Both the position numbers and the translations under genes were made by a program. Of a stretch of 42,177 nt of DNA, positions 3,928 through 6,027 are shown in pieces (the stretch's first letter is position 1; each line of letters begins with the position of its first letter). This DNA is from an uncultured Gammaproteobacteria bacterium (lineage in GTDB: Bacteria > Patescibacteriota > Microgenomatia > CAZETR01 > Amesbacteraceae): positions 1 through 42,177 of the forward strand of contig CAYHNU010000002.1 in assembly GCA_964358085.1 (NCBI GenBank), given 5' to 3'. The notes beneath the pieces were generated by a model, which was not told where the DNA came from, did not search any database, and saw only the letters and a list, made by a program, of their open reading frames with translations.

Positions 3928-4764
3928 TTACTCGAATTTGTCGGCATATTGGGACGAGATCCAGCCGGAAGAAGTAGCGTTAAGATCGACCTTGATGAGG
4001 TACCAACTGGGGGCTTTTTCTAAGAGCGGATATTTTTCTCCAGGCTTGACCCGGCCTATTTCTTTGGCACCAGTGTTTGGTTCCTGGCGGATTCGTAAGA
4101 AGCCCGTGGGGGTATCTTTGATTTCTACATACGGCTTCTTCAGAATAGCGGAGGCTGTGGCTTCTGGTGTTGGAGAGGGAGATGGTGTGGGCAAGCTAGC
4201 CAGTTTGACGTTGACGTTAAGTTTGTAACCTAAAACGGCCTTAGCAAAAACAGTCCGGGGTGAAAAACCAGGAGCAGAGATACCAATCTGGTGATCGCCG
4301 GCGGGAACAGAAGGAACGGGAAGTGGAGAAAATCCCTGGGGCTGACCATCGAGAGTAATCGAAGCGGAATTCGGGTTGGAAGTGACTACCGCCAGGGAGG
4401 CGGTCTTGCCTGACTGAAGCTCGAGATTGACTACTTCGCCGGAGGAAGCCAAGTCGGAGTCACCAAAATCCCGCTTGACCACGGTGTAGGTGTTGGAGGT
4501 AAGACGAACTTTGGTCTGATACGAAGTCAAAGACAAGGAGGTGGAGGTGGGAATAAGTTTGATGGTCACTTCGCCGGGTTTAAAAATCTTTTCCAGAGGA
4601 GTCTGGCCCAGTTGAACGTTATCCACATAAACCAAGGAAGTAGGAGTAGATTCGATGCGCAAGCCGGCGTTGGGCTTTTTCCCCTGGAGGTAGCTAAAAA
4701 CGCCAAAGCCGATGGCTGCTGCCCCGGCCAGGATCAAAATAATGGCTGCAATCTTCTTACCCAC
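3928..4764 (-). CDS. membrane-anchored PEGA-domain protein with C-terminal SH3b-like domain
   Basis: N-terminal TM helix. Two PEGA-like repeats (VYVDNVQLGQTPL; ITLDGQPQG..GDHQIGISAPGF). C-terminus (GFLRIRQEP..GEKYPLL..WYLIKV..GWISSQY) looks like a bacterial SH3 domain. Confidence 0.65.
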   Translation of the reverse strand: MGKKIAAIILILAGAAAIGFGVFSYLQGKKPNAGLRIESTPTSLVYVDNVQLGQTPLEKIFKPGEVTIKLIPTSTSLSLTSYQTKVRLTSNTYTVVKRDFGDSDLASSGEVVNLELQSGKTASLAVVTSNPNSASITLDGQPQGFSPLPVPSVPAGDHQIGISAPGFSPRTVFAKAVLGYKLNVNVKLASLPTPSPSPTPEATASAILKKPYVEIKDTPTGFLRIRQEPNTGAKEIGRVKPGEKYPLLEKAPSWYLIKVDLNATSSGWISSQYADKFE

Positions 4765-4807
4765 GGGTAAATAATACCACGATTTGGTGTAAAATGAGGC
4801 AGGATTT

Positions 4808-4854
4808 GGCCAGTCCTGCAGAGCAGGATCTGGCTTTGCCAGAGTGGCGAAGTG
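4808..4854 (+). pseudogene. 5' fragment of a tRNA-Cys-like gene (GGCCAG|30-nt insert|GTGGCGAAGTG)
   Basis: With 4814-4843 removed it reads GGCCAGGTGGCGAAGTG. The intact tRNA-Cys 5' end is GGCCTGATGGCGAAGTG (5136-5152). Acceptor GGCCAGG is the exact complement of CCTGGCC at 5333-5339. Confidence 0.55.
4814..4843 (+). repeat. 30-nt double-hairpin element, copy A (TCCTGCAGAGCAGGA-TCTGGCTTTGCCAGA)
   Basis: Two adjacent 6-bp stems with 3-nt loops. Homologous copies lie at 5211-5240 and 5293-5322. Confidence 0.8.
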
Positions 4855-4856
4855 AT

Positions 4857-5132
4857 ATGTACTATACTTATGTACTAAAGAGTCTAGTAAATGGGGATGT
4901 ATACATCGGATACTCAGAAAATTTAAGAACCCGTCTTGAATATCACAACTCGGGCAGGGTAAGATCGACTAAAGGCTATAAGCCGTGGATTTTGGTATAT
5001 TACGAGGCTTATTTAAACAAATTTGATGCGGCAGGACGAGAAAAACAATTAAAAACACATGCTGCCAAATCTTCCCTGGAAAAGCAGATTTCTCGGAGCC
5101 TGACCGAAGCTAATGGTAAAATCAACAGGTAG
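4857..5132 (+). CDS. small GIY-YIG nuclease-superfamily protein
   Basis: YYTYVLKS..GDVYIGYSENL..RL..HN, then a conserved Arg and E..LK. Start moved to ATG 4857, because the upstream 21 codons are only a translation of the hairpin repeats. Confidence 0.8.
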   Translation: MYYTYVLKSLVNGDVYIGYSENLRTRLEYHNSGRVRSTKGYKPWILVYYEAYLNKFDAAGREKQLKTHAAKSSLEKQISRSLTEANGKINR

Positions 5133-5135
5133 TCC

Positions 5136-5207
5136 GGCCTGATGGCGAAGTGGAAACGCTGCGGTCTGCAAAACCGCCATGCGGGGGTTCGATTCCCCCT
5201 CAGGCCT
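5136..5207 (+). tRNA. tRNA-Cys (anticodon GCA)
   Basis: Hand-folded cloverleaf: acceptor GGCCTGA/TCAGGCC, anticodon arm GCGGT-CTGCAAA-ACCGC, T arm GGGGG-TTCGATT-CCCCC. It has the A13/A22 mismatch and U73 discriminator typical of bacterial tRNA-Cys. CCA is not encoded. Confidence 0.9.
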
Positions 5208-5210
5208 CTG

Positions 5211-5240
5211 TCTCACAGAGCGAGATCTGGCTTTGCCAGA
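5211..5240 (+). repeat. 30-nt double-hairpin element, copy C (TCTCACAGAGCGAGA-TCTGGCTTTGCCAGA)
   Basis: Begins 3 nt after the tRNA-Cys 3' end. The first stem differs from copy A by paired (compensatory) changes. Confidence 0.75.
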
Positions 5241-5254
5241 CAAAACCCTTATTC

Positions 5255-5278
5255 GCGGGTGCGAATCCCGCCCGGGTC
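5255..5278 (+). pseudogene. orphan tRNA 3' fragment (T arm GCGGG-TGCGAAT-CCCGC plus acceptor strand CCGGGTC)
   Basis: T-arm-like hairpin and a 7-nt acceptor strand followed by TCT, as at the other two tRNA 3' ends. No proper 5' partner is present. Confidence 0.4.
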
Positions 5279-5286
5279 TCTAGGAT

Positions 5287-5339
5287 GGGGTTTCCTGCAA
5301 AGCAGGATCTAGCTTTGCTAGACGATTCCCCTCCTGGCC
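5287..5339 (+). pseudogene. 3' fragment of the broken tRNA-Cys-like gene, with the T-loop split by copy B of the 30-nt element
   Basis: GGGGTT|30 nt|CGATTCCCC-T-CCTGGCC. Removing 5293-5322 restores GGGGTTCGATTCCCC. The acceptor strand pairs with the 5' fragment at 4808. Confidence 0.55.
5293..5322 (+). repeat. 30-nt double-hairpin element, copy B (TCCTGCAAAGCAGGA-TCTAGCTTTGCTAGA)
   Basis: The second stem carries a compensatory G>A / C>T pair relative to copies A and C. Confidence 0.8.
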
Positions 5340-5375
5340 TCTAAAATCGACGCTTCGGACTTTCTTCGGTTTGGG

Positions 5376-5404
5376 TTGACTTTTAGTAGACTACAGGTTA
5401 TACT
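5376..5404 (+). promoter_or_regulatory. sigma70-type promoter candidate (TTGACT-17 nt-TATACT) upstream of the M23 peptidase gene
   Basis: Read directly: TTGACT 5376-5381, TATACT 5399-5404. Confidence 0.45.
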
Positions 5405-5463
5405 GCAGGGCAGTTCTCCCCAGTATATGAGGGAGAATTTTTTTGGGCCAAAGGCCCACTAAT

Positions 5464-6027
5464 ATGTGGAAATATCTGGCAAAGATGAGTCGACTGGCTA
5501 GACCATGGGCCGCCCATAAAGGTCTGAAGCGGGCCGTGGGGCTAACTATGGCCTTGTTGGTGGCCGTGGTAGCAATTTGGGGACCCTTCCCTGCTTTGGC
5601 CTCGGATACGGGCGGAGCTGGTCTGGCAATACTGCCCGAGGGGGCAATTGAAGTGGTGACCGAGGAAGCGGCCCAGGTGCCGATAGAAAACTACAGAGTA
5701 TCCCAGGGATATCGTTTTTTCCATCCGGGAGTGGATTTGGCGGCCAAGATCGGCGAACCGGTGAAGCCTGTCGCTCGCGGCAAGGTCATTCTGGTACAAA
5801 AAGACCGCTGGGGCTATGGCCAACACGTAATCGTAGATCATGGAGACTACCAAACCTTGTATGCCCATTTATTCAAAATCAACGTGGCAGAAGGCCAGGA
5901 AGTGAACATGGAGACGGTTTTGGGTGAGGTCGGCTCAACCGGACGGTCTAGCGGACCGCATTTGCACTTGGAAGTCCGGGAAGGTAACAAAACCATCAAC
6001 CCCAAATCCGTGCTGGATATTAAGTGA
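5464..6027 (+). CDS. M23 (LytM-type) metallopeptidase, membrane-anchored
   Basis: HPGVD (HxxxD) and GPHLHLEV (HxH) motifs with an N-terminal TM helix. ATG 5464 is preferred over the TTG at 5443. Confidence 0.85.
   Translation: MWKYLAKMSRLARPWAAHKGLKRAVGLTMALLVAVVAIWGPFPALASDTGGAGLAILPEGAIEVVTEEAAQVPIENYRVSQGYRFFHPGVDLAAKIGEPVKPVARGKVILVQKDRWGYGQHVIVDHGDYQTLYAHLFKINVAEGQEVNMETVLGEVGSTGRSSGPHLHLEVREGNKTINPKSVLDIK

Follow-up and report, generated by a model that had tools for sequence, protein, structure and literature searches.

A GIY-YIG nuclease gene and an intact tRNA-Cys among hairpin-interrupted tRNA remnants: a probable homing-like cassette in a bacterial tRNA gene

We analyzed a 42,177-nt contig, CAYHNU010000002.1, of an uncultured bacterium of the Candidate Phyla Radiation (CPR), hereafter called the window; coordinates refer to its forward strand, and labels such as L001 denote related sequences. 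The locus under study occupies the host intergenic space between a minus-strand PEGA/SH3 gene on the left (3928-4764) and an M23 peptidase gene on the right (5443-6027). It holds an insert of ~530 nt whose sole coding content is a GIY-YIG nuclease of 91 amino acids (aa). Beside the nuclease gene lie an intact tRNA-Cys(GCA) and remnants of further tRNA-Cys copies, and each remnant is cleanly interrupted by one 30-nt double hairpin (Table 1). The nuclease open reading frame (ORF) starts 2 nt past the breakpoint of the 5' fragment (ATG 4857), and the intact tRNA-Cys, which was the sole tRNA gene that ARAGORN and Rfam detected in the window, starts 3 nt after the nuclease stop codon. We estimate a probability of about 60% that a resident tRNA-Cys was invaded here by a homing-like cassette made up of the GIY-YIG gene, an intact replacement tRNA-Cys and the double hairpins, and the invasion probably occurred in more than one round. 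The cassette would have replaced the middle of the resident gene and left its two ends as dead fragments, together with the 3' part of another allele.

The initial annotation of this DNA had described a GIY-YIG ORF and a complete tRNA-Cys between the two halves of a second, broken tRNA-Cys gene. The sequence features that it named (GGCCAG, the breakpoint, the spacing to the ATG and the complementarity of the acceptor strands) were all found where it had placed them, TCT does follow all three tRNA 3' ends, and the identities of the complete tRNA and of the ORF were borne out by ARAGORN, Rfam and Pfam (Table 1). Two descriptions needed revision. Both of the 30-nt inserts that it had reported are present, but a third one of the same double-hairpin family, at 5211-5240, had been overlooked; the orphan T-arm and acceptor fragment is also present, but once insert B is taken out it forms a longer colinear piece covering tRNA positions 32-73.

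Table 1. Features of the tRNA-Cys locus in the window, in order of position
Feature	Position	Strand	Remarks
TAAAAT -10-like box	4790-4795	+	Resident tRNA-Cys transcription unit; now 5' of fragment and ORF; putative promoter
Outer (resident-type) tRNA-Cys remnant, positions 1-6, GGCCAG	4808-4813	+	
Double-hairpin element A, TCCTGC-AGA-GCAGGA TCTGGC-TTT-GCCAGA	4814-4843	+	At tRNA position 6/7
Outer tRNA-Cys remnant, positions 7-17, GTGGCGAAGTG	4844-4854	+	
GIY-YIG ORF, 91 aa, stand-alone, UPF0213/SLX1 branch	4857-5132 (including stop)	+	Pfam PF01541, E 1.1e-14
Second tRNA-Cys -10/leader copy, TGGTAAAATCAACAGGTAGTCC	5114-5135	+	Inside the last codons of the ORF, abuts intact tRNA; putative function
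Intact tRNA-Cys(GCA), U73 discriminator, CCA not encoded	5136-5207	+	ARAGORN; Rfam RF00005, 63.1 bits
Middle remnant, anticodon-loop positions 32-34, CTG	5208-5210	+	
Double-hairpin element B, TCTCAC-AGA-GCGAGA TCTGGC-TTT-GCCAGA	5211-5240	+	At G34/C35, within the anticodon
Middle remnant, positions 35-73, third tRNA-Cys allele, CAAAACCC...CCGGGTC T	5241-5278	+	
Outer remnant, GGGGTT, 5' strand of T stem and first part of T loop, through position 55	5287-5292	+	
Double-hairpin element C, TCCTGC-AAA-GCAGGA TCTAGC-TTT-GCTAGA	5293-5322	+	T loop, 55/56
Outer remnant, positions 56-73, CGATTCCCCT CCTGGCC T	5323-5340	+	

A metagenome scan with the neighboring PEGA protein yielded 15 syntenic loci. At the empty sites L089/90, L091/92, L093, L094, L096 and L098/99, the same -10 box and leader come after the PEGA gene and introduce one uninterrupted tRNA-Cys, beyond which lie the promoter and gene of the M23 peptidase; no GIY-YIG ORF, hairpin or fragment was found in any of them. 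Related genomes thus carry a plain tRNA-Cys at the exact site that the initial annotation had taken to be disrupted. Comparison of the filled site L001 with the empty site L093 showed upstream flanks that are 93.5% identical across 673 nt and downstream flanks that are 96.9% identical across 130 nt, and the homology of the flanks stopped exactly at the first and the last base of the tRNA gene. Close relatives are thus polymorphic for the presence of the cassette at this locus, with flanking markers converted. The filled sites L001 and L002 and the empty or LAGLIDADG-filled sites L091, L095 and L096 come from groundwater of the Hainich. In L001 and L002 the ORF is 86% identical to that of the window, and the layout of the window is kept as far as the middle fragment; because these are independent assemblies, the structure of the locus is not an assembly artefact. 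A different endonuclease gene takes the same spot in other relatives: L088 carries a LAGLIDADG-type ORF of 217 aa (1835-2488; Pfam LAGLIDADG_3, E 2.6e-8) between the PEGA gene and tRNA-Cys, and L095, L097 and L101 also have a 217-aa LAGLIDADG-type ORF where the GIY-YIG cassette would lie, with the upstream flank of L095 being 97.6% identical to that of L001. The occurrence of empty, GIY-YIG-filled and LAGLIDADG-filled states in one species-level cluster indicates a hotspot for endonuclease genes, one that is served by two unrelated endonuclease families.

The empty sites also identify the leader sequences of the locus. The TAAAAT box and its leader (GGTAAAATTAGGCAGAATTC) stand ahead of the uninterrupted tRNA-Cys in L093, L094, L096 and L092, and a consensus promoter scan did not flag the box at 4790-4795 because it has no -35 match. 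The leader native to the empty sites aligns with the segment at 5114-5135, and TGATAAAAT occupies the equivalent place in L003-L005. The end of the ORF (...ANGKINR, then stop) overlaps this -10/leader-like sequence, TGGTAAAAT-N13-GGCC, and read-through of a duplicated tRNA promoter may be the cause of the C-terminal extension that is peculiar to this ORF subclade.

We aligned the fragments, with inserts removed, to the uninterrupted tRNA-Cys alleles of the same locus in relatives, with 500 shuffles as the control. The outer 5' piece (4808-4813 plus 4844-4854) matched positions 1-17 of the L093/L096/L003 allele at 16 of 17 bases (shuffled maximum 12), and the outer 3' piece (5287-5292 plus 5323-5341) matched the L093/L096 allele at 25 of 25 (shuffled maximum 13). 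Since both best match the L093/L096 allele, the outer pieces are the two ends of a single resident gene. Their acceptor strands are complementary (the 5323-5340 remnant against 4808-4813 plus G4844), with CGATTCCCC at 5323-5331 and CCTGGCC at 5333-5339 lying within the 3' fragment. The middle piece, including 5208-5210, matched L097 at 38 of 43 bases and L091 at 37 of 43 (shuffled maximum 16); it is colinear from the anticodon loop through the 3' end and has a T arm (GCGGG/CCCGC), an acceptor strand (CCGGGTC) and a discriminator T. A single difference (CCATGC versus CCACGC) separates the intact gene from the plain resident gene of L094. Plain-gene alleles in the syntenic relatives are of three types, and because the fragments and the intact gene match three different alleles, the locus is a layered allele mosaic. 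The displaced remnant corresponds to the allele of relatives and the working copy to another allele, and the same pattern was found in L006/7 and L024-29.

In the covariance model of Rfam the fragments alone gave no tRNA score above background and only the intact gene scored, a result that on its face goes against the initial annotation. Low scores are to be expected of truncated sequence; the model is an unfair test for such pieces, and allele matching was used instead. When the outer halves were joined directly, ARAGORN found no tRNA, and it found one only with the missing middle borrowed from the intact gene; positions 18-48, anticodon arm included, are missing from the outer gene even after all inserts have been removed. 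The idea that resident and imported sequence meet precisely at each hairpin was not retained, as the 5' fragment of the window is possibly a single natural allele (the 5' fragment of L064 starts GGCCAGGTGGCGAAGTGG).

Elements A, B and C belong to one family, each being built of two 15-nt hairpins side by side, in which a 6-bp stem closes a 3-nt loop, and no element of this type was found elsewhere in the window. Differences between copies are compensated (TCTGGC/GCCAGA versus TCTAGC/GCTAGA; TCCTGC/GCAGGA versus TCTCAC/GCGAGA). Element C differs from A in hairpin 2 by one compensated pair, and the single mismatched stem pair of element B is a perfect pair in L001 (TCTCGC). A hairpin scanner that required two neighboring 6+3+6 hairpins in which no fewer than 11 of the 12 stem pairs are Watson-Crick, whatever their sequence, detected 51 elements in 293 kb (the window and related loci), versus 0-3 in shuffled sequence. 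The 38 distinct elements have a common frame, TC-nn-GC-NNN-GC-nn-GA twice with a central GATC. Their variable 'nn' stem pairs covary (10 of 12 pairs with changes on both sides), a test that is weakened because the scanner preselected for pairing. The two loops, which were not selected for, are mutually complementary: 82.5% of cells were paired compared to 50.6% in shuffled data, with 0 of 500 shuffles as high and, in a separate test, 0 of 2000. As duplex DNA the 30-mer is near two-fold symmetric, with asymmetry only at the four variable stem pairs, and the double-hairpin form is therefore favored over one long hairpin. The complementary loops and the symmetry point to a role at the DNA level, as a symmetric site or a cruciform, and not to a role in RNA.

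The insertions are clean, in that once a hairpin is taken out the tRNA sequence is colinear again, with nothing duplicated or lost. Of 41 distinct insertion sites, 32 have G at -1 and 34 have C at +1, and further out T at -2 and A at +2 each occur at 28. The favored insertion point is thus the center of TG/CA (the slash marking the insertion), and others include CG/CG, GG/CC and TT/CG. In tRNA-Cys, TG/CA corresponds to U33-G34/C35-A36, and its presence in the anticodon loop may explain why this hairpin type is paired with tRNA-Cys. The position within homologous 5' fragments differs, being 6/7 in the window and L001 versus 17/18 in L005, and position 55/56, which holds element C in the window, also holds a double hairpin in L003/L004, of unrelated sequence. 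None of the loci examined formed an empty/filled pair that differed by a hairpin alone.

These insertions could be taken for RNA introns, with the pieces spliced or trans-spliced into an additional tRNA-Cys. The inserts do lie at non-canonical intron positions of archaeal tRNAs (D arm, anticodon loop, T loop), their removal gives colinear tRNA sequence, and the outer acceptor halves are complementary. However, the outer gene without its inserts still lacks the anticodon arm and everything else from position 18 to 48, and in-silico deletion of all 52 hairpins in 103 sequences left the number of complete tRNAs at 104 before and after, so that no new one was obtained. No hairpin was found inside any intact tRNA, and those located in tRNA sequence were confined to truncated copies. 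Furthermore, the hairpins are self-contained and unpaired with their flanks, forming no bulge-helix-bulge with the exons; Rfam showed no intron family at gathering or E-value thresholds; the complementary loops indicate DNA symmetry; and one plain gene suffices in relatives. A functional split or intron-bearing tRNA is therefore very improbable.

Several hairpins outside the usual arrangement were also observed. In L018 (1443-1555), a second tRNA-Leu copy lies 3' of the intact tRNA-Leu(TAA), runs from position 1 onward and carries a double hairpin at 12/13; it is possibly full length, the contig ending within it, and is the sole candidate for a complete hairpin-interrupted tRNA. In L020 (~1990-2080), a tRNA-Leu 3' fragment with a palindrome in its anticodon loop lies past the intact tRNA-Leu(TAA), with a further double hairpin at 2288; these pieces have no ORF directly beside them and could be leftovers of ORF loss or products of action in trans. 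In L100 (2804-2833, flipped orientation), a perfect 12/12 double hairpin, TCTGGCAAAGCCAGACCCTGCTCTGCAGGG, stands in frame within a coding ORF, in a linker rich in Pro and Thr. Another GIY-YIG ORF, of 80 aa, comes immediately after a tRNA-Gln and lies ~300 nt upstream of this hairpin. The in-frame copy suggests that hairpins are able to enter non-tRNA DNA where 10 extra codons are tolerated. In viral contigs the hairpin pattern occurred at chance-like levels and never near a tRNA or GIY-YIG gene. Two functions considered for the hairpins were rejected: concealment of the ribosome-binding site, as hairpin and ATG are anywhere between 8 and 85 nt apart and some hairpins lie 3' of the tRNA, and an anti-deletion device that makes loss of the ORF lethal, as L012 has 34 nt of perfect homology upstream of its hairpin.

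The nuclease consists of a single GIY-YIG domain that fills residues 1-71 of the 91 aa, and Y3, Y5, Y16, R26, H30, E50 and E62 are invariant in 33 homologues. The predicted structure (pLDDT 90.3) contains the catalytic core and one C-terminal helix only. Neither the domain search nor the model revealed a DNA-binding module joined to the catalytic domain, and no SLX1-type C-terminal zinc-finger domain or other further domain is present in the 91 aa. A profile search of solved structures returned the UPF0213 proteins 1zg2 (BH0048; E 2.8e-12) and 1ywl (EF2693; 4.7e-8), followed by SLX1 (7wme/6seh). Foldseek with the model gave a probability of 1.0 for 1zg2 and the SLX1 entries 6sei, 7cq2 and 4xm5, and 0.6 for the catalytic domain of I-TevI. 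The NCBIfam group I intron endonuclease model scored 21.9 bits against a cut-off of 56, and only 2 weak matches were found among 50,697 phage records. By both sequence and fold, therefore, the protein is a catalytic-domain-only member of the structure-specific branch and not of the Seg/I-TevI type with a DNA-binding tail; its nuclease activity is predicted from sequence. One scan of species-representative genomes gave more than 590 matches to the UPF0213-like mini GIY-YIG family.

The start of the gene has been called differently. In the collection the gene (P0001) encodes 108 aa from TTG 4806, 17 codons upstream, so that hairpin A is translated. All homologues start at the equivalent of ATG 4857, and an exact-sequence look-up of the 91-aa protein gave no match because the gene caller had started at TTG 4806. 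Several homologues have similar N-terminal extensions, and that of P0029 (MRGFDSLPDL...) resembles a translated tRNA T arm.

We compiled 94 homologous ORFs in 88 sequences, almost all from Patescibacteria. The results showed a same-strand tRNA within 65 nt downstream for 45 of the 94 (Cys 25, Gln 8, Leu 4, Lys 3, Ala 2, Glu 2, Ser 1), and at the density seen here, one tRNA per 42 kb, we infer a chance expectation well below one. Partial copies of the same tRNA lie near 41 of the 48 ORF-adjacent tRNAs (31 upstream of the ORF, 24 downstream), and at most tRNA-adjacent loci they are interrupted by a hairpin or palindrome; the association of GIY-YIG genes with tRNA fragments, which the initial annotation had set as a test of its interpretation, thus recurs at dozens of loci. 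The usual order is a -10 box, tRNA positions 1 to X, a palindromic insert, 3-15 nt more of tRNA, the ORF and the intact tRNA. Often a short spacer comes next, and then a few bases of tRNA that a hairpin at 34/35 separates from positions 35-73. As in the window, L006/7 and L024-29 have outer fragments with matching acceptor halves that are unlike the intact tRNA. L033 and L059 carry two tandem fragment-hairpin-ORF units ahead of a single tRNA, and in L026 and L014 the tRNA is on the upstream side of the ORF. The 3' unit, made up of a spacer, a few bases of tRNA, a hairpin and the 3' part of the tRNA, is repeated in tandem in L015 (1826-2000, two 88-nt copies), L010 (1830-1960, three copies with a single 15-nt hairpin) and L012 (1830-1972), and these arrays resemble the outcome of nuclease-driven segmental amplification or unequal crossing-over.

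In the Gln, Lys, Glu and Leu clades, a different G+C-rich palindrome of ~35 nt, CCCGCCTGCA...TGCGGGCAGG, occupies the equivalent place. In L025, L034, L039-L043, L050, L055 and L073 it interrupts the 5' fragment at points from 10/11 to 18/19 in tRNA numbering, ~30-70 nt before the ORF start, and in L039 one copy is nested in another (82 nt), a nesting comparable to the 'twin' double-hairpin elements (DHEs) of Allomyces. A neighbor-joining tree of the ORFs, which is of low resolution with ~80 columns, placed a tRNA-Leu pair from a single metagenome-assembled genome (MAG) inside the tRNA-Cys clade and mixed Gln, Lys, Leu and Glu in another clade; in that MAG, two paralogous cassettes lie at two tRNA-Leu genes. 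Since tRNA identity switches inside nuclease clades, the ORF lineages have moved between tRNA genes.

These data bear on whether the locus is mobile at all. The nuclease could instead be a vertically inherited host gene that is co-transcribed with the tRNA by chance, and slippage, unequal recombination and local duplication at a locus rich in palindromes would then have given rise to the fragments. In favor of such an origin, UPF0213 proteins occur widely and homing by them is undemonstrated, 49 of the 94 homologues have no adjacent tRNA, the ORF keeps the same syntenic position in L003-L005 at only ~61% protein identity, many fragments equal the neighboring tRNA, and the tandem arrays of L015 and L010 look like unequal crossing-over. 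Against such an origin stand the empty sites in relatives with 92-97% identical flanks and the finding that fragments and intact gene are different alleles, which occur as plain genes in other strains. It also leaves unaccounted for the switches of tRNA identity within nuclease clades, the two paralogous cassettes at the tRNA-Leu genes of one MAG and the loci with two different ORFs in tandem before one tRNA. We regard this explanation as improbable.

tRNA genes are classical integration sites, and the tandem 3' tRNA fragments downstream of the intact gene are what islands or prophages that entered tRNA-Cys might leave as duplicated att fragments. Yet no recombinase was found among the ORFs examined within ~10 kb, where the neighbors are glycosyltransferase, UbiA, PEGA/SH3, M23 peptidase, hydrolase, NUDIX and GroEL genes. 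The insert, with its ~530 nt and one 91-aa nuclease, is no kb-sized island; a 5' fragment is present as well; the fragments abut with no island in between; and searches of viral contigs and phage records revealed no connection. Integrase scars are accordingly a most implausible source of the fragments. The comparative data support both halves of the alternative offered in the initial annotation, namely a nuclease-associated cassette that broke a tRNA gene and brought a replacement copy, or serial scars.

The hairpins raise a further possibility, in which palindromes similar to DHEs or to miniature inverted-repeat transposable elements are the primary selfish element and insert at TG/CA-type sites, the GIY-YIG protein serves as a structure-specific, minimal transposase or resolvase acting in trans, and the partial tRNA duplications and the ORF position are by-products of mending breaks that the hairpins cause in a gene whose integrity is required. 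The two-fold symmetry and complementary loops, which befit a DNA site or cruciform rather than RNA, are consistent with this, as are the clear target preference, the clean insertions with neither duplication nor deletion, the shift from 6/7 (window, L001) to 17/18 (L005) in homologous fragments, and the in-frame copy within the coding linker of L100. At L033 and L059 there is one hairpin flavor per locus despite ORFs of different clades. The enzyme belongs to the SLX1 branch, whose members process branched DNA (6sei), and mitochondrial DHEs are considered potentially mobile (PMC10085805). On the other hand, the hairpins occur almost only within ~500 nt of a GIY-YIG ORF and nowhere else in the window, quite different palindromes hold the equivalent place in other nuclease clades, the ORF is kept in L003/L004 without an upstream hairpin, and neither a transposition intermediate nor a hairpin-only empty/filled pair was found. 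We consider hairpins as the primary element unlikely, though less so than a purely resident gene.

Under the preferred interpretation, a homing-like cassette, the nuclease would break a tRNA gene, or DNA beside a tRNA gene or hairpin, and the break would be repaired from a cassette-bearing copy, with conserved tRNA sequence acting as a portable homology arm on both sides. The incoming whole tRNA would keep a single-copy essential gene functional, and the ORF would thereby be placed behind the resident tRNA promoter, tying the nuclease gene to an essential gene. The extra fragments and arrays could then build up through further rounds of cutting, through repair that copies partial templates close by, and through unequal recombination. 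The hairpins, which lie ~3-15 nt from the broken ends of the fragments, might disable leftover copies by destroying both target site and homology; alternatively, they might provide the branched-DNA substrate of an SLX1-like enzyme, in which case the hairpin would be the primary mobile agent. The role of the hairpins is the weakest step of this proposal.

Several observations weigh against a homing-like cassette. The intact tRNA of the donor is hairpin-free; a target within the tRNA would therefore leave the cassette open to cutting by the enzyme that it encodes, in contrast to classical homing. The protein has no DNA-binding module, which leaves sequence-specific recognition without an explanation. 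L003 and L004 lack any 5' fragment, and a fragment with a hairpin is thus unnecessary for retention of the ORF; 49 of the 94 family members are without an adjacent tRNA; and at L033 and L059 the hairpins are of one flavor per locus, although the two ORFs of each locus fall in different clades. Many fragments are 100% identical to the adjoining intact tRNA, which local duplication or gene conversion fits as well as import does. Cleavage activity, target and hairpin function are, moreover, putative.

At the right-hand border of the locus, a strong promoter-like site (TTGACT-17-TATACT, 10/12) and a hairpin, TTCTCCCC...GGGAGAA, followed by seven T, lie ahead of the M23 peptidase start (5376-5444). 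This segment is conserved throughout L089-L099 and possibly acts on the peptidase gene as a leader or attenuator.

If a homing-like cassette is indeed responsible, a biological role would be assigned to the very common, uncharacterized mini GIY-YIG (UPF0213-like) family, and bacterial chromosomal tRNA genes, which are single-copy and essential in the small genomes of CPR bacteria, would be homing targets that are rebuilt rather than destroyed. The elements described here would also be the first bacterial double-hairpin elements tied to a candidate enzyme. To our knowledge, the mobility mechanism of mitochondrial DHEs has remained unsettled since their discovery, and the locus offers a direct test of DHE mobility with a 91-aa protein and 30-nt substrates. 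In practical terms, such cassettes give rise to mosaic tRNA alleles and to pseudo-fragments by which tRNA annotation is misled, cause wrong gene starts such as the 108-aa call that translates a hairpin, and mark routes of horizontal exchange among Patescibacteria. More tentatively, and with somewhat less than even confidence, we propose that UPF0213-type GIY-YIG proteins of 80-90 aa and their hairpin or palindrome elements constitute a previously unrecognized class of bacterial mobile element, in which a structure-specific, SLX1-like mini-nuclease acts on a cruciform-forming element and not on a long DNA sequence, invades tRNA genes at short palindromic sites (e.g. TG/CA in the anticodon loop of tRNA-Cys) and persists because it rebuilds an intact copy of the essential gene alongside. 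Such a class would be the bacterial counterpart of mitochondrial DHEs combined with mobile ORF elements (mORFs), and would assign a function to a large uncharacterized family.

The mORFs of mitochondria (Allomyces atp6; Glomus atp6, atp9, cox2 and nad3) combine an endonuclease ORF, LAGLIDADG or GIY-YIG, with a foreign copy of part of a gene; the foreign copy keeps the gene functional, and the native end persists as a remnant matching the allele of close relatives (PMC3630166). Likewise, the ORF studied here is flanked by a functional copy and a displaced remnant, with the outer remnants matching L093/L096 and the functional tRNA being another allele. The differences are that the target is a chromosomal tRNA gene of a bacterium (Patescibacteria) and not a mitochondrial protein-coding gene; that a whole gene is supplied, apparently with its leader, whereas mORFs supply only a C-terminus; that remnants are present on both sides, each marked by a double hairpin; and that the nuclease is a catalytic domain of 80-90 aa only.

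Fungal mitochondrial DHEs are short, G+C-rich elements of two adjacent stem-loops that are considered potentially mobile (PMC10085805, citing Paquin et al. 2000). The elements of this locus are similar in having two adjacent G+C-rich stem-loops with compensatory changes in the stems, a likeness of description. Paquin et al. reportedly described, in 2000, mitochondrial DHEs with compensatory helix changes and with insertion sites that vary between relatives. Unlike DHEs, the present elements are bacterial and keep to one format of 15+15 nt, framed by TC...GA and centered on GATC, with mutually complementary loops, and they lie within tRNA-derived sequence at TG/CA-type sites, almost only beside a GIY-YIG ORF.

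SegB of phages T4 and T6 is a free-standing GIY-YIG homing endonuclease encoded in a tRNA gene cluster and recognizes a tRNA T-loop motif (PMC2330249). It cuts within tRNA genes, those of its own genome included, and causes recombination-dependent (RecA-like) segmental amplification (PMC13096335); it spreads together with neighboring tRNA genes (PMC2330249, PMC13096335). The locus resembles this system in its free-standing GIY-YIG gene amid tRNA genes, and the amplification by SegB parallels the partial and tandem tRNA duplications seen here. Because SegB drives segmental amplification, the proposed step of repeated cutting and amplification has an experimental precedent. Unlike SegB, the present protein belongs to the UPF0213/SLX1 branch and lacks a DNA-binding C-terminal part, and hairpin-interrupted tRNA fragments are undescribed at SegB loci. 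With the UPF0213 proteins BH0048 and EF2693 and with SLX1 it shares the GIY-YIG catalytic core, these being its best sequence and fold matches, but the zinc-finger domain and the SLX4 partner of SLX1 are not present here. A literature search found no published function of bacterial UPF0213 proteins and no link of them to tRNA genes.

GIY-YIG ORFs have also been described in rRNA genes of CPR bacteria, within insertions that are neither group I nor group II introns, and these ORFs were judged sparse and outside homing (PMC11270868). By description, the locus is alike in coming from the same bacterial group and in placing a GIY-YIG ORF in an insertion of a stable-RNA gene. Searches of open-access papers and preprints found no account of the tRNA association, the fragments or the hairpins in CPR bacteria, and the architecture appears to be undescribed so far. 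Taken together, these comparisons suggest that the locus works as a free-standing homing endonuclease gene with a replacement copy, following the logic of mORFs, combined with DHE-like elements. We place it in neither family, because it combines a bacterial chromosome, a tRNA target and a UPF0213/SLX1-type enzyme with a hairpin format of its own.

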